A DNA stretch of 64,000 nucleotides from Candidatus Anderseniibacteriota bacterium (GCA_016197005.1 JACPWO010000002.1:8483-72482); one strand, 5' to 3'. Shown: positions 2,301-21,705, counted from the first letter of the stretch. The notes: generated by a model from the sequence alone, not told the origin. Translations and numbers: made by a program.

Positions 2301-2702
2301 ATGAATACTCTTACTCTGTCTCACCGCTACCTTGCTTTATTTATCTTAGCAGGCCTAGTAAGTCTTCTGTCTCTTTGCATTCCAGCCGTCTCAGCAATGG
2401 CGATGGATGGCATGAGTGAGATGAATCCATGTGCCATGAATCAGCAAACGGCGGTATGTCCCATGACGGTGGTGGAGCATCTCAGTTTTTGGCAACAGTT
2501 ACTGACACTCCCGGCGAAAAGCCTATCTCTCGTAACCCTTCTCGCCCTGGTTGTTTTTGTTGTCGTACGCATTGGATTACAGAATCATCTGCATAATCTC
2601 CTCATCCGTTTTTCGGCATTCTCTCACGACCTCAATCCCTTCATTGTCGACCATCTCAAGTTACAGTTCTCGCAAGGTATTCTCCACCCCAAAATTTACT
2701 AA
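2301..2702 (+). CDS. Secreted or membrane protein with a Met/Cys-rich N-terminal segment; possibly metal-binding.
   Basis: Signal-peptide-like N-terminus (LALFILAGLVSLLSLCIPAVSA) followed by MAMDGMSEMNPCAMNQQTAVCPMT. Sits upstream of the copper cluster. Confidence 0.4.
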   Translation: MNTLTLSHRYLALFILAGLVSLLSLCIPAVSAMAMDGMSEMNPCAMNQQTAVCPMTVVEHLSFWQQLLTLPAKSLSLVTLLALVVFVVVRIGLQNHLHNLLIRFSAFSHDLNPFIVDHLKLQFSQGILHPKIY

Positions 2703-2780
2703 GCGGCTCTCTGGATTAATCTTGTTTGCCAGCCATGGCAAGCAAGGTGTTTATGTTTGTATTCCTATCCTTAAATCCTT

Positions 2781-4550
2781 ATGAGTCACCACAATAAAAG
2801 AAAATTAAAGTTCCAAATCCACGGCATGCACTGTGTCGCGTGTGAGGTACTCATTGAACGGCAATTCAAGAAAGTACCAGGAGTAGAGGACGTGAGCGTC
2901 AGCCATGTTACCGGCAAAGCTCAGCTCACCTCCTCAAGCCAGCCTGACCTTACTGCTCTGCAAGCGGCAGTTCAAGACCATGGGTACACTGTAAGTTCCT
3001 GGGCTGACCGCCACCGTGTCGCCCAGCAGCTGCGCCATAAAAATACCAAACGAGACTATTTGGAACTGGGCGCGGTGCTGCTCATCCTGATGGCGGCCTA
3101 CCTCATCCTCAAACAATTTGATCTCGTACCTAAGCTGGGCATTACCGACAATATGAGCTATGGCTTCATCTTTGCCATTGGCCTGGTGGCGGCTATGTCT
3201 ACCTGTCTGGCTGTTACCGGCGGCCTCCTGGTAGCTTTGGCGGCCAAGTACAACGAGATGCACCCCCATCTGACCGGAGTACAGAAGTTAAAGCCACACT
3301 TGTACTTCAACGCTGGCAGAATCGTTGGCTACACGGCCTTTGGTGCAGCTATCGGTGCGCTGGGCTCGGCACTTACCGTCTCTCCTCGGGTAAATGGCCT
3401 CATCACGATTATGGCCAGCGTGGTGATGATCATTCTTGGTTTCCAACTCTTGCACCTCTTCCCAGGGCTCAAGCGGTTCCAACCCAAGATGCCGAAGTTC
3501 CTGGCCCACAAAATCCATGACGCGACGAGTAACGCTCATCACCCGACCGCGCCGTTCTTCTTAGGCGCGGCCACGTTCTTCCTGCCCTGCGGCTTTACGC
3601 AAGCCCTCCAGTTGTATGTATTAAGTCAGGGAGATTGGAAAGTGGGTGCACTCACCATGCTTGTCTTCTCATTGGGCACGCTGCCTGGACTCATGTCACT
3701 CAGTGCGTTGTCGAGCTTTGTCAAAGGCGCCTTCCAACGATACTTTCTTAAGTTTGCGGGAGCGGTGGTTATCATGCTCGGTCTCTTCAGTATCAACAAT
3801 GGCTTTACGCTCACCGGCATTAACATCAGCTGGGCTGCCTTCTCTCGGAGCAATACTACTGCGACTACTCAAACGGCCAATGACCCCAATGTGAAGCTCG
3901 TTAACGGCAAGCAGGTCGTGGCGATGAAAGTAGCGGGCTTAAGCTACACACCCAATAAGTTTACGGTGCAACAGGGCCTTCCGGTGGAGTGGCAGATTGA
4001 CGGTACGCAAGCGCAAGGCTGTGCGCAGGTCATTACCGTGCCGAGTCTCGGCATTACGAAGTACTTAGCAACGACTGGCATTACCACTATCAGCTTTACG
4101 CCGCAGCAGACCGGCACCATCCCGTTTAGCTGCACGATGGGTATGACCACACGGGGGTCAGCCTTTACGGTGGTGGCGAATGCAGCGGGTGCTGTAGGGT
4201 CAGCAGGACAACAGCAACCAACTCAACCACAGCCAATCGAGACTACCTCAGGTTGTAATCCAGAAATCTCCAACTGTGTCCTCGCTCAAAAAGTCTCACT
4301 CGAAGTCTCAAGTGAGCGCGGTGTGTACCCCCGGTCACTTGCGGTTAAAAAAGGTATACCCGTTGACCTCACCATAGATTCCAAAGTGCCGCTTGGCGGC
4401 TGTATGTCTGTCTGGGTCATACCCAAGTACAACGTCACCCTGCCCATGAAGGTGGGGATTAATAAGGCTACCTTTACGCCTACTGAGGCAGGGACGATTG
4501 CCATGACCTGCAGTATGGGCGGAAAGATGGCGGAGTTTACTGTTAGTTAA
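2781..4550 (+). CDS. Heavy-metal-binding fusion protein: an N-terminal HMA domain, a polytopic permease (DsbD_2/TauE-like) and two C-terminal cupredoxin-like domains.
   Basis: HMA motif GMHCVAC. Multiple TM helices with conserved Cys in the TMs (MSTCLAV, FLPCGFTQ). Two repeated C-terminal modules with GC...C.MG motifs (GCAQV...FSCTMGM and GGCMSV...MTCSMGG). Confidence 0.7.
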   Translation: MSHHNKRKLKFQIHGMHCVACEVLIERQFKKVPGVEDVSVSHVTGKAQLTSSSQPDLTALQAAVQDHGYTVSSWADRHRVAQQLRHKNTKRDYLELGAVLLILMAAYLILKQFDLVPKLGITDNMSYGFIFAIGLVAAMSTCLAVTGGLLVALAAKYNEMHPHLTGVQKLKPHLYFNAGRIVGYTAFGAAIGALGSALTVSPRVNGLITIMASVVMIILGFQLLHLFPGLKRFQPKMPKFLAHKIHDATSNAHHPTAPFFLGAATFFLPCGFTQALQLYVLSQGDWKVGALTMLVFSLGTLPGLMSLSALSSFVKGAFQRYFLKFAGAVVIMLGLFSINNGFTLTGINISWAAFSRSNTTATTQTANDPNVKLVNGKQVVAMKVAGLSYTPNKFTVQQGLPVEWQIDGTQAQGCAQVITVPSLGITKYLATTGITTISFTPQQTGTIPFSCTMGMTTRGSAFTVVANAAGAVGSAGQQQPTQPQPIETTSGCNPEISNCVLAQKVSLEVSSERGVYPRSLAVKKGIPVDLTIDSKVPLGGCMSVWVIPKYNVTLPMKVGINKATFTPTEAGTIAMTCSMGGKMAEFTVS

Positions 4551-4559
4551 CCACACTCT

Positions 4560-4799
4560 ATGAAAACACTCGATATGTTAAAAATGTGTCTCAACTGGAA
4601 AGTGCTTGCTAGCATCATTGCGGTGATTGTCATCACGTATATCTTCTTCCCCAAAATTGCCGCGGCCGCTCCGTTCCTGCTGGTGTTAGTCTGTCCGCTC
4701 TCAATGGTGCTCATGATGCGCGGAATGCAGCATGGTGATAAGCACGACATGCCCAGCAAAGACACGACAAAAAACCTTACTCATAACCATGACGTATGA
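4560..4799 (+). CDS. Small membrane protein with a His-rich C-terminal tail (DUF2933-like); metal-associated.
   Basis: One TM helix, then MRGMQHGDKHDM...HNHD. Positioned between the HMA fusion gene and copZ. Confidence 0.4.
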   Translation: MKTLDMLKMCLNWKVLASIIAVIVITYIFFPKIAAAAPFLLVLVCPLSMVLMMRGMQHGDKHDMPSKDTTKNLTHNHDV

Positions 4800-5020
4800 A
4801 AACCACTCTCACGATCAAAGGCACGCATTGTGCCTCGTGTAAAGCACTGATTGAAGACGTAGCCAAGGAAAATTCCTGCGTGACTGATATTGCGGTCGAT
4901 TTCAACACCGGGAAAACACTCATTGAGCATAAAGACTGCCTTGATTGGCAGGCCCTCAAACAAGAAGTCGAAAGCCTGGGCAAATATCACGTTGAGCTAG
5001 CTGGAAAGGAGACAGTATGA
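4796..5020 (+). CDS. copZ: Copper chaperone CopZ (single HMA domain).
   Basis: GTHCASC MxCxxC-type motif in a 74-aa protein with the ferredoxin-like HMA layout. Confidence 0.8.
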   Translation: MKTTLTIKGTHCASCKALIEDVAKENSCVTDIAVDFNTGKTLIEHKDCLDWQALKQEVESLGKYHVELAGKETV

Positions 5021-5919
5021 CGAAACAATCCAAGAACTATCTTATCTGGGGGATTATCATCGTGGCTCTTATCGCCGGTTTTGTCTGGTTCAAGCAAAAA
5101 GGAAGTTCTACTTCAGCCACCATTCTCAATCCTGTCAGTGCCATCACCCATGGTCATGGCTTAGCTGTGGATGTAAGTGATTCCACTAGGCTTCACATCG
5201 CCACCCATCATGGCCTGCTTGTCTTAGTGAATGACAAAGACTTGTACCGCGTCGGCACCAGCCAAGACGACTACATGGGCTTCTCACCTCACCCCACTGA
5301 TCCCAAGATAGTATTCAGCAGCGGCCATCCCCGCACCGGCGGCAATATCGGGGTGCAGCGGTCAGATGATAGCGGATTTACGTGGAAGAGCATATCCAGA
5401 GGCGCAAATGGGCCAGTAGACTTTCATGCTATGGCAATTAGTGCGGCCAATCCCAACCTGATGTATGGCTGGTACCAAGGAGCGCTGCAGCGTAGCCAAG
5501 ATGGCGGCACTACCTGGGAGATTGCGACACGCAATATACCGCAGATCATTCAATTGGTCGCTAATCCGATAGACGAAAATGTAGTTTACGCAGCGACTCC
5601 CCAAGGACTACTGGTCAGTCGCAACAAAGGAGCGGAGTGGAGCAATGCGTCTGACGACCTACAAGGCGGCGCCGTGGTGGCGCTTGCCATCGATCCGCAA
5701 GACCCAGCTAAGATGTTCTCGTTTTCCCAGCAGTCTGGATTAGCGAAGAGTGCTGACGGTGGGACGACCTGGGAGAAAATCAACGAGACGTTCGGCGGAG
5801 AGACTGTGCTCTTTATTGCCATAAGTAAACAGCAACCAGATACCGTGTACACCCTCACCGAGAGCAACACCATCTACAAGAGCACTGATGGAGGGAATGG
5901 GTGGAATAAGATTCGTTAA
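5017..5919 (+). CDS. BNR (Asp-box) repeat protein, membrane-anchored; Ycf48/sialidase-like beta-propeller.
   Basis: N-terminal TM helix. Five S-x-D-x-G-x-T-W-type repeats: [40 protein letters not shown]. Confidence 0.6.
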
Positions 5920-5923
5920 GACT

Positions 5924-8101
5924 ATGACTACCACAACATTTACCATCGTTGGCATGCACTGCGCCTCGTGCGTAGCGCGCAACGAGCGCAGTCTCAAAAA
6001 AGTGAAGGGCGTCAAAGATGCGACGGTGAACTTCGCCAGCCACAGCGCTACCGTTGAGTACGATGAATCACTAGTTACTGATAAGACCTTATTCGAAGCC
6101 ATCATCAAGAATGGCTATAAAGTGCTCAGCGAAGAATCAGTGAAGAATCACAAGGAAGCACTCAAGCACGAATTAGCGATTGCCAAACAACGAGCATATG
6201 TGGCGTTAGCACTCTCTTTGCCCATCGCGCTACTCGCCATGTTTGGTGTTGATCTGCCGTGGGAAGTTGCTGGCTACAATGCCAGCAACTGGTTGCAAGC
6301 GGTGGTGAGCACAATTGTCATTCTCGTCCTCGGCTGGGAATTTCATGTAGGTATGTGGAAGCAAGCAAAGTTGAAGACAGCCAACATGGATACTTTAATC
6401 TCACTTGGTACCCTGGCAGCACTTGGCTACAGCCTGTGGGCAATGGCGGTTGGTGAAGAGCATCTCTACTTCGAAACCGGTGCCGTGATTGCTGCCCTTA
6501 TCCTCCTCGGCCGTTACTTTGAAGCGAGGAGTCGTGGGCAGGCCAGTGAAGCAGTTGAAAAACTCTTGCAGCTAGGAGCCAAGACAGCTCGTTTGCTCAA
6601 AGATGGGCAAGAGCAGGAAGTACCTATTGAGCAGGTAAAAGTTAATGACATTCTATTAGTAAAGCCAGGCGAGAAAATCCCGGTGGATGGAAAAGTAAGC
6701 AACGGCTCATCAAGCGTTGATGAATCCATGCTCACCGGTGAAAGTATGCCTGTCGGGAAAAAAGAAGGTGACGACGTGTTCGGGGCAACCATCAACCTCA
6801 ACGGTGCAATCCAAGTACAAGCCACGAAGGTTGGTCAAGATACGGTGCTGGCCCAGATTGTGAAGATGGTGGCGGAAGCGCAGGTCAAAAAAGCGCCTAT
6901 TCAAAAACTGGCCGACAAAATTTCTGGTGTGTTTGTCCCGATTGTTTTAGGGATTGCTCTGGTTACGGCAGTGGGGTGGTATCTCAAGACGGGTGACCTC
7001 GCTCAGAGCCTTATTCCCGCCGTAGCGGTCTTAGTCATTGCCTGCCCCTGTTCCTTAGGCCTCGCCACACCTACGGCGATTATGGTCGGTACTGGTTTAG
7101 GCGCCAAACGAGGCATCCTTATCAAGAATGGTGAAGCCTTAGAGAAAGGCAAAAAGATTGATGTGGTCGTGTTTGATAAAACCGGGACATTAACTGAAGG
7201 CAAACCGCGAGTCACCGATACTGTGCCGCTGGGTAAAGATATTTCAACCGAGCAACTCTTAACACTGAGTGCTAGTTTGGAGAAACTGTCTGAGCACCCA
7301 CTGGCGCAAGCCGTGGTGAACGCAGCCAAAGAGAAAAAACTTTCACTGCAGCCGGTGCACGGATTTGAAAGTGTGGCCGGGAAAGGCGTCAGGGGGCAGA
7401 TTGAGGGGAGCACCATTCTCATTGGCAGTCTGCGTTTGATGCGAGAATCAGGCATTGCCACTGAAGCACACCAGCAGCAGCTGCAAGAACTGGAAGAGCA
7501 AGCCAAGACCGTTGTTGCTGTCGCACACAATAATGTGGTCGTTGGCCTACTTGCGATTGCCGATGCTCTCAAAGCCGATGCAAAACAAGCCGTTGAGCAG
7601 CTGCGGCAATCGGGCATTGAGACCGTCATGATTACGGGCGATAACAGCCGCACGGCTGAGGCCATTGCTCGTCAGGTAGGTATTGAGAAGGTTTCTGCCG
7701 AGGTGCTGCCAGGTGATAAAGCAGACAAGGTTAAGGAACTACAACACGCAGGCAATAAAGTTGCCTTTGTCGGTGATGGTATTAACGATGCCCCGGCATT
7801 GGTTCAAGCTGACCTTGGCATTGCCATTGGTACGGGCACAGATATTGCTATTGAGGCCGGTAATATTGTGTTAGTTAAAGGCAGTCCATTAAAAGTAGTG
7901 GAAGCACTGAAGCTATCTCGCCTGACCTTCAAAACCATTATGCAAAACATGTTTTGGGCATTTGGCTACAACGTGGCCGCCATTCCGCTGGCTGCACTTG
8001 GTTTGCTGAATCCGATGATTGCAGCCGGAGCGATGGCCTTCTCAAGTGTTAGTGTGGTTGGTAATAGCTTACGTATTAAGCGCCAAGCCGGAAAAGTATG
8101 A
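5924..8101 (+). CDS. copA: Copper-translocating P1B-type ATPase CopA.
   Basis: HMA motif GMHCASC. Motifs CPC ([12 protein letters not shown]), DKTGTLT, MITGDN and [10 protein letters not shown]. Start placed at the internal Met (MTTTTF) just after the upstream gene's stop. Confidence 0.9.
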
Positions 8102-8134
8102 CCAGCCTTTATTTTTTATCCTCTCCCAACATCT

Positions 8135-8878
8135 ATGGATCAAAATCCGAGCAATAAGTCTTCAGTATTCGGTGTGCCCGCAGCGATTGTCATCGCCGGT
8201 GGCCTCATTGCCGCCGCTCTGTATTTTGGCAATAGCAAAGCCTCCGTTCAGCAAGTAGCCTCCGGACAACAAGCAGCAAACCCTCAAGCAGCCCAACCAG
8301 CCGCGCAACCGCCAGAACCCACCATCGGCGCTATTCGCCCTATCACTGACCAAGACCACATTCGCGGGGCGAAGAACGCTAGGGTAACTATTCTCGAATA
8401 TTCTGATCTTGAGTGTCCCTTCTGTAAAAAATATCATCCTACGGTACAACAAGCCTTAAGCGAATATCCTAACGATGTGCGTTGGGTATATCGGCACTCA
8501 CCGTTAAGTCAGCTCCATAGCCAAGCTGCTAAGGAAGCTGAAGCGACCGAATGTGCCGGTGAGCAAGGCAAGTTCTGGGAAATGACAGATAAAATCTTTG
8601 AGGTTACGCCTTCAAACAACGGCCTTAACCTGGCTGACTTACCCAAACTAGCGCAACAAGTGGGCGTAGCTAATATCCCGCAATTTCAATCCTGCTTAGA
8701 TAGTGGTAAGTACACGAAGTATGTGGCTGACGACACAGCCGATGCTCAAGTCGCTGGACTGCAAGGTACACCCTATAGCGTCATTATTGCTGCCAATGGT
8801 CAGAAGTTCCCGCTCTCTGGCGCACAACCCTACAGCGCTTTGAAGCAATTGATAGATCAGGCGTTGAAGAGTAAATAA
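8135..8878 (+). CDS. DsbA-family thiol:disulfide oxidoreductase, membrane-anchored.
   Basis: N-terminal TM helix, a Pro/Gln-rich linker, and a thioredoxin CPFC active site (LECPFCKKYH). Confidence 0.75.
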   Translation: MDQNPSNKSSVFGVPAAIVIAGGLIAAALYFGNSKASVQQVASGQQAANPQAAQPAAQPPEPTIGAIRPITDQDHIRGAKNARVTILEYSDLECPFCKKYHPTVQQALSEYPNDVRWVYRHSPLSQLHSQAAKEAEATECAGEQGKFWEMTDKIFEVTPSNNGLNLADLPKLAQQVGVANIPQFQSCLDSGKYTKYVADDTADAQVAGLQGTPYSVIIAANGQKFPLSGAQPYSALKQLIDQALKSK

Positions 8879-8883
8879 GCACT

Positions 8884-9054
8884 ATGGTTCAACCTCAGCC
8901 TCAAGGTGGTAAGGAGCAAATCTATCAGTGCAAGGAGTGCGGTTTCAAGTACCAGGAAAAAGCGTGGGCAGAAAAGTGCCAGGCGTGGTGTTCGGAGCAT
9001 AAGAGTTGCAATTTAGAGATTATTCAGCATGCGGTACAGGCAGAGGAGGTATGA
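8884..9054 (+). CDS. Small zinc-ribbon-like protein (56 aa). It is absent from the ORF track because it is shorter than 60 aa.
   Basis: CKECG...CQAWCSEH four-Cys pattern. The stop overlaps the next gene's start as ATGA. Confidence 0.3.
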   Translation: MVQPQPQGGKEQIYQCKECGFKYQEKAWAEKCQAWCSEHKSCNLEIIQHAVQAEEV

Positions 9055-9302
9055 CCGTTGGAATAACCCTTATGAAAATTATTGTTCAGATGCGCCCAGG
9101 CTCAAGCCAGGCGAAGGTAGAAAAAATTGACGAGGGGCAGTATCGCGTGTGGGTTCACTCTATTCCTGAGAAAGGAAAGGCTAATGCGGAAATGCTCAAA
9201 TTGTTGGCTGATTATTTTCAGGTAGCAAAATCTTCGGTACGCATTGTGATAGGCAAAACAGCCCGTGAGAAGTTAGTTGAGATTATTGGAGGGAGTGAGT
9301 AA
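9051..9302 (+). CDS. DUF167 (YggU/UPF0235) family protein.
   Basis: Strong GGAGG RBS 8 nt upstream of ATG 9051. Motif PEKGKANAEMLKLLADYF...VRIVIGKTAREKLV matches the DUF167 pattern. Confidence 0.55.
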   Translation: MTVGITLMKIIVQMRPGSSQAKVEKIDEGQYRVWVHSIPEKGKANAEMLKLLADYFQVAKSSVRIVIGKTAREKLVEIIGGSE

Positions 9303-9455
9303 TATCAGCTTGGAGTAGTGAGAGTTGGTATTCTTTAGTCAAAAGCTTTAGACAGTGTTGTGTACTAAGTCCGCCATCCGCCTTTGTGTGGTGGATTTGC
9401 CCAGTAGGGTGAAAGGTGCGGTGAAAAGCAACAGTGGCTTACGGGTGTACCAAGA

Positions 9456-10205
9456 GTGCTACTCCAAACAAAAACTCCCATTGGGGAGTTTTTGTATGTA
9501 GCAAGCGCGTGTTTGGGTATGTATACTTTAACTATGACAACGCGGTCTGTTTCAATAGTGCGGCACACTATCATTAGCATTTCAGTTATGCTGCTGCCTT
9601 TGGCTGTTTCAGCTCAGGGCATGATGGGTAGTACGTTGCCGGTGACAGATGATCACACTGCCCGCGAAGAAGCTGAAGGCAAGGAAGTGTGGCAAAAACT
9701 CCAAGATAAGCAACTGACCTGTACTGATCTTTCTGATGACCAATTTGCCACTATCGGCGAATACTTTATGGGGCAAATGCTCGGTGGCTCTCATGCTGCT
9801 ATGAATGCCATGATGACCCGCATGATGGGTGAACAAGGCGAAGAACAAATGCACATTGTGATGGGGAAGCGTTTAAGCGGCTGTGACCCGTCGGCTGTCT
9901 ACCCGAATAGCGGCACCGGCTTCATGCCGATGATGAACATGATGATGGGAGGTGGCTTCAATATGATGAACTGGTGGGGTTATGGGCCTGGTATGCACTA
10001 CGGCTTCTGGGGAGGCAGCCCATTCATGTTTCTCTGGTGGATACTGATAGTTGTTCTGGTGGTGTTAGTCATCAAGGGGTTACGGCATCGTGGTATGACG
10101 ATGCACCAAGGGCGCACAACAGCCTTAGACATTCTCAATGAACGTTATGCCAAAGGCGAGATCAGCAAACAGGAATTTGAGGAAAAGAAAAAGGATATTT
10201 CGTGA
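9456..10205 (+). CDS. Met-rich membrane protein with a C-terminal SHOCT domain; putative copper-binding.
   Basis: Signal-like segment LLPLAVSAQG. MxxM-rich tracts (MMTRMMGEQ, MPMMNMMMGGGFNMMNW). One TM helix. C-terminal SHOCT-like LNERYAKGEISKQEFEEKKKDI. The true start may lie downstream of 9456. Confidence 0.55.
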   Translation: MLLQTKTPIGEFLYVASACLGMYTLTMTTRSVSIVRHTIISISVMLLPLAVSAQGMMGSTLPVTDDHTAREEAEGKEVWQKLQDKQLTCTDLSDDQFATIGEYFMGQMLGGSHAAMNAMMTRMMGEQGEEQMHIVMGKRLSGCDPSAVYPNSGTGFMPMMNMMMGGGFNMMNWWGYGPGMHYGFWGGSPFMFLWWILIVVLVVLVIKGLRHRGMTMHQGRTTALDILNERYAKGEISKQEFEEKKKDIS

Positions 10206-10218
10206 GGAGGTGATAGCT

Positions 10219-10383
10219 ATGGAAGGGAAATGTTCAAAATGCGGCATGGACACAGAAGGGTTCAAGTGCGATGTATGTGGAGCTGAATCAACGACACACG
10301 ATGAGCACCATGAGCACGGCGGCGACCACTGTATGCCGAAATGCAAAGCCTGTGGGCAAGCGCAAGTGAAGTGTACGTGTTAG
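10219..10383 (+). CDS. Cys/His-rich mini-protein (54 aa), metallothionein-like.
   Basis: GGAGG RBS at 10206-10210 and ATG at 10219. Nine Cys and five His residues: CSKCG, CDVCG, HDEHHEHGGDHCMPKCKACG...CTC. Confidence 0.5.
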   Translation: MEGKCSKCGMDTEGFKCDVCGAESTTHDEHHEHGGDHCMPKCKACGQAQVKCTC

Positions 10384-10410
10384 TAACTACTAATGGAGGC
10401 AAAAGAGCCG

Positions 10411-10444
10411 CATTTTCGAAAGTGGCTCTTTTCAATTCTGGCCA
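10411..10444 (+). terminator. Rho-independent terminator after the copper cluster.
   Basis: Stem AAGAGCC and GGCTCTT with a 14-nt loop, followed by TTC. Confidence 0.45.
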
Positions 10445-12198: not shown

Positions 12199-15100
12199 AT
12201 GTCGGAGAAGGAAAATAAGGCCAAAGAATCAAACTCAACAACCCCTTTCATAAAAGAGGTTGGTAAATACTTTATGGAATTTCTGGAGACAGACTTTCAT
12301 AAAAGAAGGCTGCCTCGTAGGAGTATTAAACTACATAACGATAAGGGATTACTTACTGGTCTCAATCTCAGTAAGTATCCAAGTTTTTATAAAGTTGCAT
12401 ATAAGCTTGTTAACAATGCCTTCACTGACGCCGAGTTAACAATCCAAAAGGGCGTATACAAGGCAGACATACCGGAGTCGCTGCTTGATCTCATCAAGAA
12501 GCAAATAAATAAAGTTACCAATACCGAAGTTACCGCTCTCATTAAGGAGCTTGATGATTCAATCCAACAATCGTCAGTCAAATATAAAGACGACTATTTG
12601 CAGGCATTTAATTCAGTCATGGAGAATGCTGGCTCGGTATTTGAAAAACACATCATCCTCAATTTAGTAAAGAGTATAGAAAAGCCACTTGAAAATAATA
12701 AACTCGCCGATGAGAATGCCATTTTCCAGATAGAGGATGAGCTGACGAACATCTTTACAAAGAAGGTTGAAGATGCCGTAGCCGAATCTCTCAAGATTCT
12801 CTTAAGCGGCGATAAACCAAATACAAAGAAACTTTTAAAGGATGTGCTGGATATAGAGGACATCCGTGCCAGTTTGGCCAAGTTCTTTGAAATGTTTAAG
12901 GTGTCGGATCTTTTCAATGATCTACATGAGCTTTACCAGAATTTTAAAATAGAAGATAAGCAGGAATTTTATTTCTACTTTTACGATATTAGTTACCAAA
13001 AAACTAAGTATCCCATCTTCTACATCCCATTCTCTATTGAAAGACAAAGCGATACGTTTCTAATTACCTTCGATTCGCAAATTTATATCAATAAGAAAGC
13101 ATTGGCATACATCGTTCAGGAATATAACCTTGAGCGAGGCAAAAAGGGAGCACTGCAAACAATAGCCGATAGAATTATTTACCTCGCCGATCATGAGGAT
13201 GACTTGCCGTTGGTGTTACAAGACACACTGACAGAGATTTCAAACTTCTTTGACTTAGACACAAAACCTCAAGTGGCAAAACCAGACATACAATTGAGCA
13301 AGAGCCTGTATGTTACGGCGAGCACCAATGCATATATTGCCCTTTTCGATAAGTCAGACGAGGCACTATTAAATGATTATGAGGACATTCTTAATGCCGC
13401 CGCCGACAGTGTTTTAATGAAAGGCTTTCAGGTTTTGATAAATGATTTTATACACGAAAATCCTGAGTCTGTGGCAAAGCCCATCAGGGATGATTGGGAT
13501 AGTAAGGGAGTTGATGAGCGATTGGTATATAAAAGTCCCATCCCTCTCAACAGCGAGCAACAACAGATACTTTCTGCTATTCATAATGACAGGTGCAAAT
13601 ATGTGCTCGTTGAAGGTCCTCCGGGAACGGGGAAAAGCCACACAATCACTGCAATTGTTTTTGACACGATTCTGGAGAACAAATCGGTTCTCGTGCTATC
13701 GGATAAGAAGGAAGCGCTTGATGTAGTTGAGAAAAATATTGTGAACACTCTGAATAAGGTTCGCGTTGACGAGAAATTTCAGAATCCCATTTTGCGGTTA
13801 GGAAAAACTGGTAATACCTACAGTCAACTTCTTACTCAGTCATCTATTGAAGCTATTACACAGCAGTTCAGAGCCGTCAGAAGTAAATATCCTAATCTCA
13901 ATGAGCAGATAGATGTTGCGATAGAAGCATTGAGGAATGGTGTGAAGGGTCAGACTGATGCGTATCATCATATCTCGCTTGCCGATGTTAATGAACTGTC
14001 TTCATTGAAGAAGCACTTCGATGAAGCAGGTTTTTGTATCGACGTTGATGAAGCTATAAGCAACCCCGATTCTGTAGAGGAGCTTACAAAAATACGCTCT
14101 ATCTTCTTGAAGCTTAAAAATAGGATAAAAGAAAACAGAGACGTATCGTTTAACTTTGATTACACCAAAGAGCTGGGTGATGAGAATTCCAAGAACCTTG
14201 AAGAGATTATTTCTGCGTTGGAAGATATAGCGCGACTGGCAGAGGAAAGCCCGCGCCTCTTTAGTGAAAGTAAATTATCGTCTCTTTACGATCACGTTCA
14301 GAAGAACAAAGTAAAAGTAGAGAAATTGCTTGGTTATCTTGCAAGTGTGTCTGAGCTCACGAATTTATTCACTAAAAAGAAGCAGTATTTAGACTTACTT
14401 CACGTCGACAAGAATGAGCTTGATAGTTTAGCCACTATTAAAACAGTAGCGCAGCACGCTTTGTGGCTAGAAGGCATCGTCGAAAAGGTGAAATATTTTG
14501 CGAAAGATTCTCTTAGTCGTTTGAGTTCTTTTGATAAGTCGCATAGTGATGACGTTGTTGCTCTGAAGAATTATATTGACTCAGCAAAAAAGTTGCGGAA
14601 CGGATTGCTTGGCTACTTGGGGAAGAAAAGCAAGGTCGAGCAATTGAATCAGAGCTTCCGCAAGAATTTCCCTCTTTCTAAATTCGATGACCCGCATAAA
14701 CATCTAAAAGAATTAGAGGAAATTCTAGGTATCTATGAATACGTACAAGAACTTTGCGACGATAAATATCATCCGCAGGATATTGATCTGATACACTTAG
14801 TCACTTCGATTCTAAAGGATGGTGAACTGTATTTTACATCCGATCAGCTAACTGATATTCGCAATTCGTTTGATGTTACAAACAAAGTTGATGTAATCGC
14901 TCAAGAGATTTCTAGTTCTAAGTTTTCTGTTATGACGCTTCACGACCTGAATGATATTGCGGTCATTTCTGAAATTGGAGCGCTCTATGAAGAGTTGAGC
15001 GACCTTATGACTAAGGAAAAAGAGCTAATTGAATCGAATGTTGATCTAAAGAAGATCAAGAACATCAATATGCTTTTTCAAAAAGACAATCTTAAAGAAA

Positions 15101-16977
15101 TGATTGGAGAGATCAGTGTCTGCAAAGAATACGTAGATACACTCATTGAGGTTAATGATGATGTCGTTTATTTAAAGGAATCTTCTGACAATCACAAAAA
15201 TAGTTTTGCAAAGGCGGGCATCGACAATAGCTCTTTCTCTTCGTTATACGAAAACAAATTAACTGAGATATCGGATCTTGAATTTGAAAAGCTCGTCAGA
15301 TTTATCACTCTGCATCAAGAGCTGACAGAAAAATTTGATGATATTAAGGATCTCAGCTACGGAGAGCGAATGAAGCAAGTCGAGAATATTGTAACGATGC
15401 AAATGACATATCTGATGGATGAGAGATTCGTTGACTTCACCAATGACTTTAAAGCTGACGCAAAAGCATTAAAGCAGGTAATCAAGGAAAAGAAGAAGTT
15501 TCCTAAAGATCAATTCTCAAAACTCAAGAATGCATTCCCGTGTATTTTAGCCGGTATCCGTGACTATGCAGAATATATTCCCTTGGAGCCAGAGATATTT
15601 GACCTTGTCATCATCGATGAGGCATCTCAGGTAAGTATTGCGCAAGCATTCCCAGCTCTATTGAGAGCAAAGAAGGTTGTTGTGCTTGGGGATAGCCTGC
15701 AATTTAGTAACGTGAAGTCTGCTTTGGCGCGAGGCGACATTAACAAGCAGTATTTGGGTAGTCTGCGGGAAGTTTTCTTAAAAACAGTTGCTACCGAGGA
15801 AGAGACAGACAAGGTAGCCCGCCTTGAAAAATTCAATATCAAAGTTTCAATTCTCGATTTCTTCGGCTTCATTAATAATTACCAGACTCGTTTAGTTAAG
15901 CATTTCCGTGGATACCGGGAGCTTATTTCGTATTCAAATAAGTTCTTTTACAAAAACAGCCTACAGGTTATGAAAGTTCGAGGTTTGCCGATCAGTTCGG
16001 TCATTAAATTCTCTCAAGTAGACCATGACGGTAAGGAAGAAATGACTAAAAACACAAACGTGCCTGAGATAGAGTTCATTATCTCCGAGCTTAAAGCTTT
16101 AAAGGATCAAGACAAAAAATGCACCGTCGGTATCATTACCCCTCATACAAATCAGCAACGTCTACTTTATGAGAAGATTAGTGATCTGCCTGAATCTGAT
16201 TATTTCTTCGATGCGTTGAAGCTTAAGGTGATGACCTTCGACACATGTCAGGGTGAAGAAATGGATATTATTTATTATTCCATGGTGGCTACCGAAACGG
16301 AAGATAAATTAAACTATGTGTTCATTAGTGATCTCAATAATATCGATCTAGACGATGACGAAGGAAAAATTAAGGCACAACGTCTTAACGTCGGTTTAAG
16401 CCGAGCGAAGGAATGTATGCACTTTGTACTTAGCAAGCCAATTGATCAGTACGCGGGTACTGCAAAAGAATTTCTGCAGCACTACTCAAATGCTCTGCTT
16501 GAGGCTCAAAAAGAACCTGATAGTACTAGCGTAGATAAGAATTCCGAGATGGAGCCGCTGGTTCTGGAATGGATCAAACAGACGAAGTTTTGGGATGAGA
16601 ACAAAAATAATGCTGAAATATTGCCTCAGTTTGAACTTGGTAAATATCTCAAGCAGTTGGATCAGAGCTATAATCATCCTAACTATCGAGTGGATTTCCT
16701 TCTCGTATATCGCGACGAAGAAGGAAGTGAGCATAAAATCATTATTGAATATGATGGCTTCCTAGAACATTTTGGTGATGTGATGCATGTAGTCAATGAG
16801 TCAAATTACGAAGAATACTATTCATCAGAGGATGTATATCGACAGCACGTTCTAGAAGGTTATGGTTACCGATTCATTAGGATCAATAAGTTTAATCTTG
16901 GCGAGAACCCCATCGCCACGCTTGATTCTCGAATTCAGGAAATAGTAAAAAAAAACTTTACAATCACGAAATCGTAA
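12199..16977 (+). CDS. Giant 1592-aa SF1B (Upf1/DNA2-like) helicase with a C-terminal Vsr/DUF559-like PD-(D/E)xK nuclease domain. The architecture resembles the DUF4011-helicase-REase family.
   Basis: Walker A VLVEGPPGTGKSHT. Motif Ia VLVLSDKKEALD. Motif II LVIIDEASQV plus GDSLQF. Motif V TFDTCQGEEMDII. Motif VI LNVGLSRAKE. C-terminal YRVDFLLVY...IIIEYDGFLEHF...GYRFIRINKF matches the DUF559/Vsr-like fold. Confidence 0.85.
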   Translation: MSEKENKAKESNSTTPFIKEVGKYFMEFLETDFHKRRLPRRSIKLHNDKGLLTGLNLSKYPSFYKVAYKLVNNAFTDAELTIQKGVYKADIPESLLDLIKKQINKVTNTEVTALIKELDDSIQQSSVKYKDDYLQAFNSVMENAGSVFEKHIILNLVKSIEKPLENNKLADENAIFQIEDELTNIFTKKVEDAVAESLKILLSGDKPNTKKLLKDVLDIEDIRASLAKFFEMFKVSDLFNDLHELYQNFKIEDKQEFYFYFYDISYQKTKYPIFYIPFSIERQSDTFLITFDSQIYINKKALAYIVQEYNLERGKKGALQTIADRIIYLADHEDDLPLVLQDTLTEISNFFDLDTKPQVAKPDIQLSKSLYVTASTNAYIALFDKSDEALLNDYEDILNAAADSVLMKGFQVLINDFIHENPESVAKPIRDDWDSKGVDERLVYKSPIPLNSEQQQILSAIHNDRCKYVLVEGPPGTGKSHTITAIVFDTILENKSVLVLSDKKEALDVVEKNIVNTLNKVRVDEKFQNPILRLGKTGNTYSQLLTQSSIEAITQQFRAVRSKYPNLNEQIDVAIEALRNGVKGQTDAYHHISLADVNELSSLKKHFDEAGFCIDVDEAISNPDSVEELTKIRSIFLKLKNRIKENRDVSFNFDYTKELGDENSKNLEEIISALEDIARLAEESPRLFSESKLSSLYDHVQKNKVKVEKLLGYLASVSELTNLFTKKKQYLDLLHVDKNELDSLATIKTVAQHALWLEGIVEKVKYFAKDSLSRLSSFDKSHSDDVVALKNYIDSAKKLRNGLLGYLGKKSKVEQLNQSFRKNFPLSKFDDPHKHLKELEEILGIYEYVQELCDDKYHPQDIDLIHLVTSILKDGELYFTSDQLTDIRNSFDVTNKVDVIAQEISSSKFSVMTLHDLNDIAVISEIGALYEELSDLMTKEKELIESNVDLKKIKNINMLFQKDNLKEMIGEISVCKEYVDTLIEVNDDVVYLKESSDNHKNSFAKAGIDNSSFSSLYENKLTEISDLEFEKLVRFITLHQELTEKFDDIKDLSYGERMKQVENIVTMQMTYLMDERFVDFTNDFKADAKALKQVIKEKKKFPKDQFSKLKNAFPCILAGIRDYAEYIPLEPEIFDLVIIDEASQVSIAQAFPALLRAKKVVVLGDSLQFSNVKSALARGDINKQYLGSLREVFLKTVATEEETDKVARLEKFNIKVSILDFFGFINNYQTRLVKHFRGYRELISYSNKFFYKNSLQVMKVRGLPISSVIKFSQVDHDGKEEMTKNTNVPEIEFIISELKALKDQDKKCTVGIITPHTNQQRLLYEKISDLPESDYFFDALKLKVMTFDTCQGEEMDIIYYSMVATETEDKLNYVFISDLNNIDLDDDEGKIKAQRLNVGLSRAKECMHFVLSKPIDQYAGTAKEFLQHYSNALLEAQKEPDSTSVDKNSEMEPLVLEWIKQTKFWDENKNNAEILPQFELGKYLKQLDQSYNHPNYRVDFLLVYRDEEGSEHKIIIEYDGFLEHFGDVMHVVNESNYEEYYSSEDVYRQHVLEGYGYRFIRINKFNLGENPIATLDSRIQEIVKKNFTITKS

Positions 16978-17045: not shown

Positions 17046-17681
17046 GTGAAGCCGCTATCTGATTTTCAGGATAGATCATTGGCTACAGGGGTTGGTAGGT
17101 TTTGTCGTGAGTGCAAAGTAGGATTGAGCGCTCATTACTACATTTCACCAAGCACTGAGAGACAGCAGAGGAATATTTATAGTCTCTCAAAGGGCGATGT
17201 GAATAAGCTGCATAGTTTTTCTGATACCCCGGAAAAATATGCGAGTGGAGGCAGCAAGGCACGAGAGAAAGTTCAATACCTAGAGAGTATTAAACATAAG
17301 TTTGATGGGTTACAGGTTGCCAAATACATAGCGGCTCGTAAAAAGTATGACGAAGCACTTGTGGCAAAAGCAGAGACCGAACTGAATCAGGATGTAGATT
17401 ATAGCGCCATCTTAAATGAGGCATTTAATAATCGCAGATCAGTCAAGATTCGCTATAAAGGATCATGGCGCACTGTTGATCCCTACTCTCTTAACAATAC
17501 TTATGTGGTTGCTTACTGCCATCTCGCTCGTGATATCCGAACATTTAGAGTAGACAGAATACAAGGAGCGGATTTGTCCGATTCATTTAGCTTAAATAGC
17601 AACTTGCAGGAAATGGCACAAAGTAGATTGGCTGAAGCTCCTAGCTTTCGAGGCTATAAGCGTCGGCGGCGCAGGTATTAA
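17046..17681 (+). CDS. Zinc-ribbon plus WYL-domain protein, a putative ligand-sensing regulator. The frame is open from 16926 with no canonical start, so it may be fused to the helicase.
   Basis: WYL-like segment RRSVKIRYKGSWRTVDPYSLNNTYVVAYCHLARDIRTFRVDRI. Zn ribbon CPKCG-x17-CRECK. The ORF-track GTG start at 17046 falls between the two Cys pairs. Confidence 0.55.
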   Translation: MKPLSDFQDRSLATGVGRFCRECKVGLSAHYYISPSTERQQRNIYSLSKGDVNKLHSFSDTPEKYASGGSKAREKVQYLESIKHKFDGLQVAKYIAARKKYDEALVAKAETELNQDVDYSAILNEAFNNRRSVKIRYKGSWRTVDPYSLNNTYVVAYCHLARDIRTFRVDRIQGADLSDSFSLNSNLQEMAQSRLAEAPSFRGYKRRRRRY

Positions 17682-17696
17682 ACTTAAGATTAATAT

Positions 17697-18449
17697 ATGT
17701 CCGAATACTACAATCCAAACCGTGGGCCGAAGTGGAATTACGGGGGAGATCAATGGAAGCTATCGCGCTCTAAGATCGACTTGTTTTTAGAATGCCCTCG
17801 TTGCTTCTACATCGATAACAAGCTTGGCGTAAAGCGGGTACCCGGCTTTCCTTTTGCGTTAAATAGCGCTGTGGATCATTTGCTGAAGCTGGAGTTTGAT
17901 ATTCATCGCGCCAATGGCGAGCAGCATCCACTACAAAAAGAATATGGCGTTGATGCCCGACCAGTGCCCCATGAAGAGCTTGATGAATGGAGACGCAACT
18001 TCGGTGGGGTACGTCATCTGCATGAAGCAACGGGCATGTTAGTCACCGGTGCCATTGACGATCTATGGATCAACAGTAATGACGAATACATTGTGGTGGA
18101 CTACAAGGCGACAGCAAAGGAGGAGGCCGTAACGAAACTAGATAAAGAATGGCAGGATGGGTATAAGCGGCAGATGGAAGTGTATCAGTGGTTGCTTCGT
18201 CAAAATGGCCTCAAAGTATCGGATACCGGCTATTTTGTATACTGCACCGGAAAGTTAGACGGCAAGTCATTTGATAAACGTATCGATTTTGATGTTCATC
18301 TAATCCCTTATGAAGGCAATAGTGAGTGGGTAGAAGGAACGTTGCTCAAGATAAAGGGATGTTTAGATGGTGACGCGATTCCGAAGACCGGCAAGAGTTG
18401 CGATTACTGTGCGTATTGGAATGCACGACGGTTGATTGAGTCGACATAA
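17697..18449 (+). CDS. Cas4-like/RecB-family PD-(D/E)xK nuclease with a predicted 4Fe-4S cluster.
   Basis: N-terminal LSRSKIDLFLECPRCFY. D...IVVDYK (D/ExK). QMEVYQWL (QxxxY). Three C-terminal Cys (C...CDYC). A 15-nt gap follows the WYL gene. Confidence 0.7.
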   Translation: MSEYYNPNRGPKWNYGGDQWKLSRSKIDLFLECPRCFYIDNKLGVKRVPGFPFALNSAVDHLLKLEFDIHRANGEQHPLQKEYGVDARPVPHEELDEWRRNFGGVRHLHEATGMLVTGAIDDLWINSNDEYIVVDYKATAKEEAVTKLDKEWQDGYKRQMEVYQWLLRQNGLKVSDTGYFVYCTGKLDGKSFDKRIDFDVHLIPYEGNSEWVEGTLLKIKGCLDGDAIPKTGKSCDYCAYWNARRLIEST

Positions 18450-19866: not shown

Positions 19867-21705
19867 ATGTTGGCCAAGATATTTGCACAATTAGTAACGA
19901 CAGCTGTTGTGGTAGTTGCAGCGGTGATGCTGTTCTCTGGAAACTCCAGCGCCGCCCAAAATACTAGTCAGCTTGAAATATTTTTCACGGACAAAGATAA
20001 CAATCTGAAAACAGCGTCGCTGGCTGACGAAAAATGGGGCATTGACACTGTCGATAATCCTGGTGGGGCGGTCGGCACGTCACTGTCGGTCGTGTTGGAT
20101 AACCAGGGAGCTAGCCATTTAAGCTACCGAGATAGTCGACCGGGTAAAGCAGAATATCAACAATCTGATTTACGCTATGCTACCAACAGTAGTGGTACCT
20201 GGCAGGATGAGGAGGCTTTTGGAACAGATGGTCGTATTGGTGCCAATGCAATAGTAGTAGATGCGCAAGGACATGTTCACATTATTTTCAACCATTACCC
20301 GGCAAATGATCCCAGTAATGGTGAGCTGCTTTATGCCAATAATTCAACCGGCGACTGGCAAGTAGAGGAAGTTAGCCAATCAGCTTTAATTAATAGTGGC
20401 AATATTGGCATTGATGCTAGTGGTCTACTACATACTGTCTACCAACACAATCAACAGCTTGTTTACTCTAAACGCACAGGTTCTAATCAGTGGACGAGCG
20501 AAGTGATAACATCTTTTGGCAGCCGACTACCTCATGTTGCTTTTGCCCTGGATAGTGATGGGCAACCGCAGGTTGCCATTGTTCTGCAAGATGAGAATAA
20601 ACTGAAATTCGCTAAGCGCGGTGGCGATAGCTGGAGCATTGAAGATGTGACAAGTTGGACTAACGGTGGCGACCAACATGTATACTTAGGTCTAGATACT
20701 AACGATAAGGCACACCTTGCATTAACGACTGGTCCAGGTAATGGACGTGGACCTCATTATATTACGAAAAGTGGTAACCAGTGGTTAATTGAGTCAGTCG
20801 GCGCTTTCATAACAGAGCCTTCATATTTGTCTTTGGGCGTTACCACTGACGATACGGTGCATCTAACTTTTGCGACTGCGTATGATAATTCACCACAATT
20901 AGACTCTGATCGACCACTGCATTATGCCAGACGAGTTGATAACCAGTGGATAGTTGATCAAGTGCATGAAGAAGGTACCGTCTTGCGAGGACGATTTCCC
21001 GTCATGGTAACTTCAGGTGCATCCCCTGTTTTACCCGACTGTTTTGCGCGAACTCTTGGGCTGTATTGCGCTAACGACCCGTCACCAGTAACTAATCCCA
21101 ACGTTGATAACACGAGCAGTAGCAATGAAGTTAGTAGTGGTGATAATGGTGGTGGGGGCGACTCCGGCGGCGGTGGGGGCGGTGGAGGTGGTAATGGCGG
21201 TGAATCTACACCGGCGCCCGTAGCCAAGCCGCGAGTATTAGGTATACAAACTGTTAAAGTCTCAGCAGCTGATAAAGCAGCGCCGGACTTTATTCCAAAT
21301 CAGCAGGTTCCCGTCATTGTCGCTCGACTTTTTCAAGAAGTTTTTGGGCGACTAATTACTCCTGCAGAAAGTACATACTGGAAGGGTCGAGCACGTAGTG
21401 ATAAAGCTACCGAAACTAAACTTAGAGGTGCTATGGCGTGGCACCAGGCTAACGGTTCGACAGGTGCTATGGCATCAGTAGTAACTGCTGTAAACGCTCC
21501 AGCTTCTACAACGAATATTATTTCGAACAAGCAAGTACCAGCGGTTGTTGAACAAGTATTCGCCAAGGTTTTCCATTTACGCGTTAGTGCAATTCTGAGT
21601 ACATACTGGAAGGGTCGAGCACGCACAGACAAACGCACTAAGAGTCTACTTGAAGGTGCTATGCGATGGTATCAAGGTAAAGGATTGACTTCGCCTACTA
21701 GTTGA
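19867..21705 (+). CDS. Secreted repeat protein with a propeller-like N-terminal domain, a poly-Gly linker and two C-terminal DUF4214-like repeats.
   Basis: Signal peptide. A recurring hhhDxxGxxHhhh motif about every 50 aa. Linker GGGGDSGGGGGGGGGNGG. Duplicated ...STYWKGRAR.DK.T...GAM.W.Q..G modules. Confidence 0.6.
   Translation: MLAKIFAQLVTTAVVVVAAVMLFSGNSSAAQNTSQLEIFFTDKDNNLKTASLADEKWGIDTVDNPGGAVGTSLSVVLDNQGASHLSYRDSRPGKAEYQQSDLRYATNSSGTWQDEEAFGTDGRIGANAIVVDAQGHVHIIFNHYPANDPSNGELLYANNSTGDWQVEEVSQSALINSGNIGIDASGLLHTVYQHNQQLVYSKRTGSNQWTSEVITSFGSRLPHVAFALDSDGQPQVAIVLQDENKLKFAKRGGDSWSIEDVTSWTNGGDQHVYLGLDTNDKAHLALTTGPGNGRGPHYITKSGNQWLIESVGAFITEPSYLSLGVTTDDTVHLTFATAYDNSPQLDSDRPLHYARRVDNQWIVDQVHEEGTVLRGRFPVMVTSGASPVLPDCFARTLGLYCANDPSPVTNPNVDNTSSSNEVSSGDNGGGGDSGGGGGGGGGNGGESTPAPVAKPRVLGIQTVKVSAADKAAPDFIPNQQVPVIVARLFQEVFGRLITPAESTYWKGRARSDKATETKLRGAMAWHQANGSTGAMASVVTAVNAPASTTNIISNKQVPAVVEQVFAKVFHLRVSAILSTYWKGRARTDKRTKSLLEGAMRWYQGKGLTSPTS

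Follow-up and report, generated by a model that had tools for sequence, protein, structure and literature searches.

A 64,000-nucleotide stretch of DNA from Candidatus Anderseniibacteriota bacterium (GCA_016197005.1 JACPWO010000002.1:8483-72482), here called the window, encodes at positions 2301-10444 eleven genes on the + strand, A to K, among which is a copper homeostasis cluster of the Cu(I)/Ag(I) type. Its central component is gene B (2781-4550, +), whose 589-residue product is a fusion of a heavy-metal-associated (HMA) domain, a linker helix (TM0), a DsbD_2 membrane core and two CupA-like cupredoxin domains. We tentatively favour a reading, to which we would give not quite an even chance, in which protein B is a cysteine relay that moves Cu(I) across the membrane alongside the ATPase CopA, probably outward; that the protein translocates metal at all, with both directions taken together, we consider moderately probable. 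Most of the eleven genes were identified by Pfam and NCBIfam hidden Markov model (HMM) searches, with domain calls taken from scores well above the cut-offs of these databases and sequences taken from translations of the window. A first-pass annotation of the region had described copZ and copA accompanied by a series of partners, and by HMM score both genes and every partner that it listed are indeed present on the + strand.

HMM scores, paralogy and an AlphaFold model all bear out the composition proposed in that annotation for protein B, namely an HMA domain, a Cys-containing membrane domain and two cupredoxin domains. The HMA domain (residues 10-71, with C18 and C21) scores 51.8 bits, and is followed by TM0 (residues 93-113) and by a core of six transmembrane (TM) helices (residues 126-344; DsbD_2, 121.2 bits against a cut-off of 24.9) that carries C142 in TM1 and C270 in TM4. 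The first cupredoxin domain (about 366-466; Cupredoxin_1, 47.5 bits against a cut-off of 27) contains C414, C451, M453 and M455. The second (about 497-589; C541, C577 and M579) is preceded by a linker with the pair C492-x6-C499 and is not detected by Pfam; BLASTP identifies it as a paralogue of the first domain (E 4e-12), and in the AlphaFold model it forms a beta-sandwich. The model as a whole (predicted local distance difference test score, pLDDT, 87.5; predicted TM-score, pTM, 0.80) has helices that are broken at both membrane cysteines. In an alignment of 92 diverse relatives, which share 29-58% identity with the window protein, C18, C21, C142, C270 and C414 are invariant (92/92), and R180, N177, T273, Q274 and Q277 are further highly conserved residues of the membrane domain. 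The protein is unrelated to CopB and CopD, from which it had been thought distinct.

The membrane domain belongs to DsbD_2. A Pfam scan of 16 membrane domains found DsbD_2 in all of them and DsbD_TM in six (best 1.7e-9). TauE, which had been put forward with DsbD_2 and Cupredoxin_1 as a family that protein B might match, was matched neither by the whole protein at E <= 0.01 nor, with the other families of the LysE clan, by the 16 membrane domains at E <= 1, and we rejected a TauE/SafE (PF01925) identity of the membrane domain on the basis of this missing Pfam match. The public name of the whole family at NCBI and JGI is 'sulfite exporter TauE/SafE family protein' (P0012, P0046, P0086, P0094, P0161 and plasmid hits H2-H9), which is probably a systematic misannotation that has arisen by carry-over. 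In an hhalign comparison with a single Streptomyces CcdA, the two cysteines that are catalytic there, in the motifs SPC and TPC, are paired with C142 and C270; the match is weak (E 6e-4, probability 28%). TM4 of protein B reads LPCG, with the proline kept in 91 of the 92 relatives, and TM1 reads S-(T/S)-C, without a proline. A sequence-profile search with the membrane domain detects no solved structure. MerH was taken up as a possible characterised relative after one homologue was seen beside merA in Tsukamurella, and was rejected as an unrelated protein of the MerC family: hhalign of MerH (pMM23) against the membrane profile of protein B found no homology to this Mer transporter (probability 0.6%), and the NCBIfam Mer matches on protein B are confined to its HMA domain.

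The 'GC...C.MG' pattern that had been picked out in the cupredoxin domains is present and, judging by alignment, is the known Cu(I) site of CupA, an identity that had gone unrecognised. A phmmer search of PDB sequences returned Streptococcus pneumoniae CupA (4F2E, 2MRY) and the CopA metal-binding domain (4F2F) at E about 1e-5, and the top Foldseek matches of the model are 4F2E (TM-score 0.78, root-mean-square deviation 1.7 Å) and 4F2F (0.85, 1.5 Å). Residues C414, C451, M453 and M455 align with C74, C111, M113 and M115, the ligands of the binuclear Cu(I) site of CupA, and are kept in 92, 91, 90 and 83 of the 92 relatives, respectively. The second domain retains the Cys pair and the first Met, with Gly at the position of M115. 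Protein B thus shares with the CupA and CopA domains (4F2E, 2MRY, 4F2F) the fold, detectable homology, the four ligands and a gene within a copA operon. CupA, however, is a single cytoplasmic domain with one N-terminal membrane anchor that passes Cu(I) to a cupredoxin-type CopA domain, whereas the domains of protein B are C-terminal to a seven-TM protein, are predicted to face outward, are duplicated with no M115 equivalent in domain 2, and coexist with a classical HMA-type CopZ/CopA pair. CupA has also been described as limited to a few streptococci, whereas the protein B family is widespread.

Protein B has seven hydrophobic helices, and the loops between those of the core alternate in charge, with a mean of 3.4, 5.3 and 2.1 Lys+Arg residues after TM1, TM3 and TM5 against 0.4, 0.35 and 0.16 in the alternate loops (92 relatives). 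Because the positive-inside counts alternate in this way, the protein is predicted to adopt an N-in, C-out topology with the HMA domain in the cytoplasm and the CupA-like domains outside, and the earlier suggestion that it binds metal on both sides of the membrane is very probably correct. The Thr/Gln/Ser-rich linkers are consistent with domains that lie outside the cell, as is the C-x6-C pair that precedes domain 2. In plasmid loci of cultured organisms (Streptomyces, Deinococcus, Tsukamurella and Chlorohelix) all four homologues are six-TM proteins that lack the HMA domain and have an intact CxMxM motif, and the next gene in each of the four encodes an HMA protein of 72-85 residues without a signal peptide. 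In the form found in bacteria of the candidate phyla radiation (CPR) this HMA partner is fused through the extra helix TM0, which allows a cytoplasmic partner to be joined to the core. The pairing of the two parts by fusion or fission argues for a physical hand-over of metal at the cytoplasmic face of the membrane domain.

The fusion is far from rare. More than 2800 homologues of protein B with the same architecture are found in a database clustered at 90%, and a set of representatives at 50% identity yields 1083 clusters at E <= 1e-30. The form met most often has about 450 residues and one cupredoxin domain, and the form with two is found mainly in CPR bacteria and DPANN archaea; about 20 of 150 cluster representatives consist of HMA and DsbD_2 without an external domain. 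The family spans CPR bacteria (Uhrbacteria, Saccharibacteria, Kerfeldbacteria, Gottesmanbacteria, Peregrinibacteria and Paceibacteria), DPANN archaea (including a closed Woesearchaeota chromosome), Actinobacteria, Deinococcus and Chloroflexi, and plasmid-borne homologues occur in cultured Streptomyces, Deinococcus, Tsukamurella, Mycolicibacterium, Chlorohelix, Paenibacillus and Acetoanaerobium. Comparison of 24 fusion-bearing loci (L001-L024) gives a recurrent core of A - B - copZ - copA, with copZ and/or copA after B in nearly all of them. CPR bacteria, DPANN archaea and Actinobacteria all preserve the synteny of the fusion with these two genes. Genes for CsoR and a multicopper oxidase accompany the cassette in close relatives (L023 and L024). 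The protein B family combines known modules in what is predicted to be a new topology: an external CupA-type site, a DsbD-type core and a cytoplasmic HMA partner.

The distribution of the cassette shows two further features. In DPANN archaea the order DsbA-like - fusion - copZ - copA is seen in Candidatus Woesearchaeota (CP066683.1, 8201-14554; L014) and in a Micrarchaeota metagenome-assembled genome (MAG; L007), where CopA is 67-71% and the fusion 51-54% identical to the window proteins; the guanine-plus-cytosine (GC) content of the DPANN cassette has drifted toward that of the host (33.5% in a genome of 31% GC). These comparisons suggest that CPR bacteria and DPANN archaea have exchanged the cassette. 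On a Tsukamurella tyrosinosolvens plasmid (L035, 3836-6717) the homologue and a small HMA gene immediately precede merA, where a mer transport pair would otherwise lie, and on a Deinococcus plasmid (L026) merB and merR lie within 5 kb of the homologue; some family members may handle Hg(II).

In the outward Cu(I) relay that we favour, the cytoplasmic HMA domain would receive Cu(I) from CopZ at C18/C21 and would hand it to a two-cysteine membrane site made up of C142 (TM1) and C270 (TM4). From there Cu(I) would pass to the Cys2/Met2 sites of the one or two tethered extracytoplasmic CupA-like domains, which would either retain it, limiting its re-entry, or pass it on, for example to the multicopper oxidases of sister islands. 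The relay would run parallel to CopA and would probably be proton-coupled; proton antiport through protonation of the cysteines is a chemically plausible, if purely conjectural, source of drive. We favour a relay of Cu(I) because three bis-thiolate stations would span the membrane, the outer two of which are dedicated Cu(I) binders. An outward direction is favoured because the HMA domain is at the transporter's own N-terminus, which in the P1B ATPases is the arrangement of an exporter, because the gene is embedded in a copZ-copA unit, and because sister islands carry CsoR and HMA-DsbD_2 proteins are predicted targets of this regulator. The prediction is a computational one, which placed HMA-DsbD_2 proteins (COG2836) in the CsoR copper regulon of gut Firmicutes (PMC4938975). 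These proteins resemble protein B in their HMA domain and DsbD_2 core and in a copper regulation deduced computationally, and about 20 of the 150 representatives of the protein B family have this shorter form; they differ in carrying DUF2318, or no external domain, rather than CupA-like cupredoxins. It is possible, although we hold this broader proposal with more doubt, that the protein B family of roughly 1000 clusters is an unrecognised class of ATP-independent transporters of Cu(I) and soft metals, in which a DsbD/CcdA core has been converted from carrying electrons to carrying metal (from the HMA CxxC through the TM1/TM4 cysteines to the external Cys2Met2 site) and whose cassette has been exchanged between CPR and DPANN.

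Several points weigh against a Cu(I) relay. A search of the literature found neither an experimental nor a descriptive paper on the fusion architecture, and no tested member; protein B has no identifiable energy-coupling element; and no copper regulator is encoded in the window, where a tblastn search that used CsoR from L023 and from L024 as queries found no CsoR. Outside DsbD_2 itself, the only relatives of the membrane domain that can be detected are the electron transporters DsbD and CcdA, and its two invariant cysteines, C142 and C270, align with the catalytic pair of CcdA, which would suit electron transfer as well as it suits metal binding. A DsbA-like gene is found near the fusion in about half of the 24 loci. 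The cysteines of CupA reduce Cu(II) in vitro, and its C74/C111 pair needs a reductant. The direction of transport is ambiguous too, as the Tsukamurella homologue and its HMA gene are placed upstream of merA like a Mer uptake pair.

The alternative that survives best, which we nevertheless judge unlikely, takes protein B to be a conduit for electrons that copper does not cross. Working in the manner of CcdA, DsbD or ScsB, the DsbD_2 core would pass reducing equivalents from cytoplasmic thioredoxin outward through C142/C270, and would keep the CupA-like cysteines, and perhaps those of the DsbA-like protein, reduced. The reduced CupA-like domains could then take up the Cu(I) that CopA releases, or serve to reduce Cu(II). 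This would supply the reductant that the CupA pair requires, and DsbD_2 and DsbD_TM are the only Pfam families that match the membrane domain. The breaks in the helices of the model have a counterpart in CcdA, whose helices are likewise broken at its cysteines. In DsbD and ScsB a membrane domain carries tethered external beta-sandwich domains, each with a Cys pair, and the layout of protein B resembles this architecture. ScsC structures are among the PDB relatives of the DsbA-like protein of the cassette, and genes for BNR, DsbA, CcdA and SCO proteins are combined in other metal islands. Protein B and the CcdA, DsbD and ScsB-ScsC systems therefore have in common a six-TM core, cysteines in TM1 and TM4, tethered external Cys-pair domains and a nearby DsbA/ScsC-like gene in a copper context. 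The differences are that the core of protein B is DsbD_2 rather than DsbD_TM in Pfam and the protein is not an ScsB, that its TM1 lacks the proline of the CcdA 'PC' motif, and that its external domains have the fold of a copper chaperone and are neither thioredoxin-like nor of the DsbD-alpha type. An electron conduit also leaves the HMA domain without a role, although none of the cases examined lacks this domain, which is either part of the fusion or the product of the gene that comes next; we know of no thiol-disulfide relay that uses HMA, a metal-binding module, and of no DsbD or CcdA system with a cytoplasmic HMA partner. The representatives that combine HMA with DsbD_2 (about 20 of 150) have no external domain to reduce, and two canonical ccdA genes adjoin the Streptomyces homologue, which suggests that the homologue does a different job.

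A relay running inward, as in MerP-MerT-NmerA or CopC-CopD, is in our view quite improbable. Here the external domains would bind incoming Cu(I), or bind Cu(II) and reduce it, and copper would pass through C142/C270 to the HMA domain and CopZ, either to feed cuproenzymes such as multicopper oxidases or to clear the cell surface toward CopA or a sensor. The arrangement would mirror the logic of mercury uptake by MerP-MerT-NmerA, in which a thiolate bucket brigade leads from a soft-metal site outside the cell through cysteines in the membrane to an HMA domain in the cytoplasm; some homologues of protein B adjoin merA or merB, as in the Tsukamurella and Deinococcus plasmids described above. Downhill uptake into a strongly buffering cytoplasm would need no energy coupling, and multicopper oxidases are encoded in the sister islands. 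On the other hand, uptake beside a Cu(I) exporter, probably under a CsoR-type regulator that is derepressed by copper, would be a futile cycle, and we know of few cuproenzymes in CPR and DPANN cells. Protein B is unrelated to MerT, MerC and MerH, its HMA domain is fused to the transporter, in the manner of an exporter, rather than to an enzyme, and its gene is in a copper export operon. Finally, it is very improbable that protein B exports sulfite or organosulfonates, as its name in NCBI and JGI implies, or acts as a sensor or scaffold, and that it clusters with copper genes by chance, given the absence of any TauE match in the window protein or the 16 membrane domains, the two types of flanking domain that are dedicated copper or soft-metal binders with invariant ligands, and a synteny with copZ and copA that holds from CPR bacteria to DPANN archaea and Actinobacteria.

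The metal of the island is indicated by gene F (5924-8101, +), a P1B-1 Cu(I) ATPase of the CopA type with one N-terminal HMA domain (TIGR01511, 613.6 against a cut-off of 397; TIGR01525, 665.6 against 346). Its translation contains ACPCSLG (CPC), DKTGT, FGYNV (YN) and AMAFSS (MxxSS), a P1B-1 signature from which the metal is Cu(I) or Ag(I). The reading frame opens at 5888; a start at 5924 is most likely, since it matches the 725-residue homologue in L023. Gene D (4796-5020, +) encodes a 74-residue CopZ-like HMA chaperone with a CxxC motif (GTHCASC; Pfam HMA, 35.4 against a cut-off of 24.8), which scores under the cut-offs of the NCBIfam CopZ equivalogs; a CopZ-like gene follows the fusion in most of the related loci.

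Between copZ and copA lies gene E (5017-5919, +), which encodes the BNR/Asp-box protein that had been reported at this place. Its product is a membrane-anchored propeller of the F510_1955 family, a BNR 'glycosylhydrolase' family that is named and uncharacterised. The match to the NCBIfam equivalog NF045728, whose cut-off is 175, scores 188.6 bits and extends over positions 3-246 of the 246 in the model. A BNR gene occupies the same position in two of the 24 loci (L023 and L013), and F510_1955 BNR genes recur in plasmid metal islands beside SCO/DsbA/CcdA genes or resistance-nodulation-division (RND) efflux genes. Elsewhere in the window, 10 kb downstream of the island, a gene at 19867-21705 encodes a 612-residue protein with a BNR_4 score of 26.8 bits, just under the cut-off.

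Gene G (8135-8878, +) encodes a membrane-anchored DsbA-like protein of the thioredoxin fold with a CPFC motif, which matches Thioredoxin_4 and DSBA in Pfam. DsbA and PDI entries of the PDB (1e-17 to 2e-13) are better matches than the ScsC structures (4e-7 to 2.5e-6), and the protein belongs to the broad DsbA/ScsC/BdbD group. Gene C (4560-4799, +) encodes a 79-residue DUF2933 membrane protein (Pfam PF11666; score 31.4 bits, cut-off 21) with CPLSM...MQHG motifs, which is 59% identical to its counterpart in L023. In Alteromonas a DUF2933 gene adjoins a cupredoxin gene and copA (PMC8478169). The merR-copA-cupredoxin-DUF2933-ICMT clusters of Alteromonas and other Gammaproteobacteria (PMC8478169) and the plasmid islands with F510_1955 genes share with the window accessory families (cupredoxin, DUF2933, BNR and DsbA-like) that adjoin copper ATPases. 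In the Alteromonas-type clusters, however, the cupredoxin is a separate small protein that is not fused to DsbD_2, and a MerR-type regulator is encoded within the cluster. The partners of copZ and copA, which the first-pass annotation regarded as unusual, are therefore mostly recurrent accessory genes of metal islands rather than oddities.

Gene A (2301-2702, +) encodes a 133-residue protein that belongs to no Pfam or NCBIfam family and is identical (100%) to HYR90_01415 of a Candidatus Andersenbacteria MAG, which makes the host a CPR bacterium. It has two hydrophobic helices, an external C-x8-C-P-M...EH..W motif and the C-terminal sequence FSQGILHPKIY. A word-indexed search returned only four homologues; tblastn on the loci was needed to reveal the family, and showed that a homologue of gene A immediately precedes the fusion in 13 of these 24 loci. 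In the position of gene A, directly upstream of the homologue on Streptomyces mirabilis pI (L025, 5310-5720), there is a gene for a 136-residue secreted Met/Cys-rich protein (MDAMPM...SCPMDDMVMDC), which by eye has no similarity to protein A beyond CPM and may be an analogous external copper-binding partner. Genes A and B are separated by a hairpin with a T-rich tract (2719-2748, +) that resembles a terminator or attenuator (13-bp stem, -19.5 kcal/mol, z = -2.7) and ends about 32 nt before the start codon of gene B. Since it is so close to this start, expression of gene B may depend on read-through, and the hairpin may act as an attenuator or as a control of stoichiometry. Most loci have a hairpin and T-tract between A and B (L002, L004, L009, L010, L013, L020 and L024), with unrelated sequences.

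The spacing of genes B to I is at most 33 nt or a 4-nt overlap, with gene D overlapping each of its neighbours by 4 nt, and these genes are therefore probably co-transcribed. A 231-nt gap precedes gene J, and genes J and K probably form a separate transcription unit. This unit ends in a hairpin (10401-10432, -17.9 kcal/mol, z = -2.4) with a short T-rich tail. The feature as a whole (10401-10440, +) resembles an intrinsic terminator, with an 11-bp stem, a 10-nt loop that caused a consensus scan to miss it, and a T-rich 3' arm and tail; the terminator previously placed at 10411-10444 is thus real in kind, with its coordinates shifted. No convincing operator was seen upstream of gene A or gene B.

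The window is collinear with contig L023 from 2667 to 8868, at 72.6% nucleotide identity, and the similarity ends there. The order of genes in L023 is CsoR - multicopper oxidase - second P-type ATPase - A - B - DUF2933 - CopZ - BNR - CopA - DsbA-like, and its fusion is 79% identical to protein B. As the collinearity stops at the end of gene G, the conserved cassette runs from A to G (2301-8878). The copper cluster had been drawn as a single island over 2301-10444; the cluster itself stands, but only 2301-8878 is a conserved copper-detoxification cassette, which is followed by four loosely attached genes. Three of these, for the DUF167 protein, the SHOCT protein and the Cys/His mini-protein, lie outside the cassette as local additions. 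The list of genes in the first-pass annotation is also short by three, those for the 133-residue protein (2301-2702), the DUF2933 protein (4560-4799) and a 56-residue open reading frame (ORF) at 8884-9054; the genes that it did list were all confirmed.

The cassette has a GC content of 50.8% against 43.9% in the rest of the window, a difference that we do not take to prove that it was recently acquired by horizontal transfer. Of ten further hosts, one of which is an archaeon of 31% GC, nine have a cassette that exceeds its flanks by 2-5 points, the archaeon among them, and for this reason much of the shift is probably compositional. The copper cluster is flanked by genes that look related to defence or mobility, which encode an HNH-like protein (890-1810), a 1592-residue superfamily 1 (SF1) helicase (12199-16977; AAA_11/AAA_12) with a weak C-terminal match to restriction endonucleases, a WYL-domain protein (17046-17681) and a PD-(D/E)XK nuclease (17697-18449).

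The first of the four genes downstream of the cassette, gene H (8884-9054, +), starts 5 nt after gene G and is the 56-residue Cys-rich ORF (CxxC...C...C...C; CKECG...C..WC....C), which matches no family. One homologue was detected, in a Gottesmanbacteria MAG (L017, 8888-9028), directly upstream of a P-type ATPase gene that it slightly overlaps. Gene I (9072-9302, +) encodes a DUF167 (YggU-like) protein (Pfam, 67.5 against a cut-off of 30.9), and is tightly spaced with the operon; it lies outside the stretch collinear with L023. Gene J (9534-10205, +) encodes a Met-rich membrane protein (10.4% Met) with a C-terminal SHOCT domain (Pfam, 37.9 against a cut-off of 27). Its reading frame opens at 9456, and it probably starts near 9534, since its homologues are 210-230 residues long; 1923 of these were found, mostly in CPR bacteria. 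DUF167 and SHOCT genes are absent from all of the related loci (L001-L024). Two homologues of the SHOCT protein, on six near-identical contigs (L029-L034), are followed by a gene for a 108-residue DsrE-like protein and have no copper genes beside them; we rejected the SHOCT protein as a part of the copper system on the synteny of these two independent contexts. In the window the place of the DsrE-like gene is taken by gene K.

Gene K (10219-10383, +), which has a GAGGAGG ribosome-binding site, encodes a mini-protein of 54 residues with nine Cys and five His. A mini-protein had been noted here and described as metallothionein-like. It is indeed encoded, with 54 residues rather than 81, and it has no match to a metallothionein model of the SmtA/BmtA type and no Pfam match better than E = 0.02, so that the label is descriptive. 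A homologue with 49% identity is an uncalled ORF inside another copper island (L024, 7352-7516, +), where it is divergent from a gene for a regulator of the HTH_5/ArsR/SmtB type (6880-7170, -). The divergent arrangement is that of smtB and smtA, the latter being the cyanobacterial metallothionein. The homology and the analogous arrangement suggest that gene K and the ORF of L024 may represent a new family of small metal-binding proteins.

If protein B is a Cu(I) relay, then copper resistance in the ultra-small CPR bacteria and DPANN archaea, and in many Actinobacteria, Deinococcus and Chloroflexi, would rely on a second, ATP-independent route beside CopA, and the domain that forms this route is one whose only known role to date is in electron transfer. 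If the protein is instead a conduit for electrons, the family would still be novel among DsbD-like systems, with an external copper chaperone as its dedicated client. Under either reading, thousands of 'sulfite exporter TauE/SafE' entries are probably misnamed, and the CupA site would be a widespread and mostly extracytoplasmic module rather than a streptococcal peculiarity. The covalent attachment of a CcdA-like domain to this site also makes the re-reduction of CupA-type cysteines testable.

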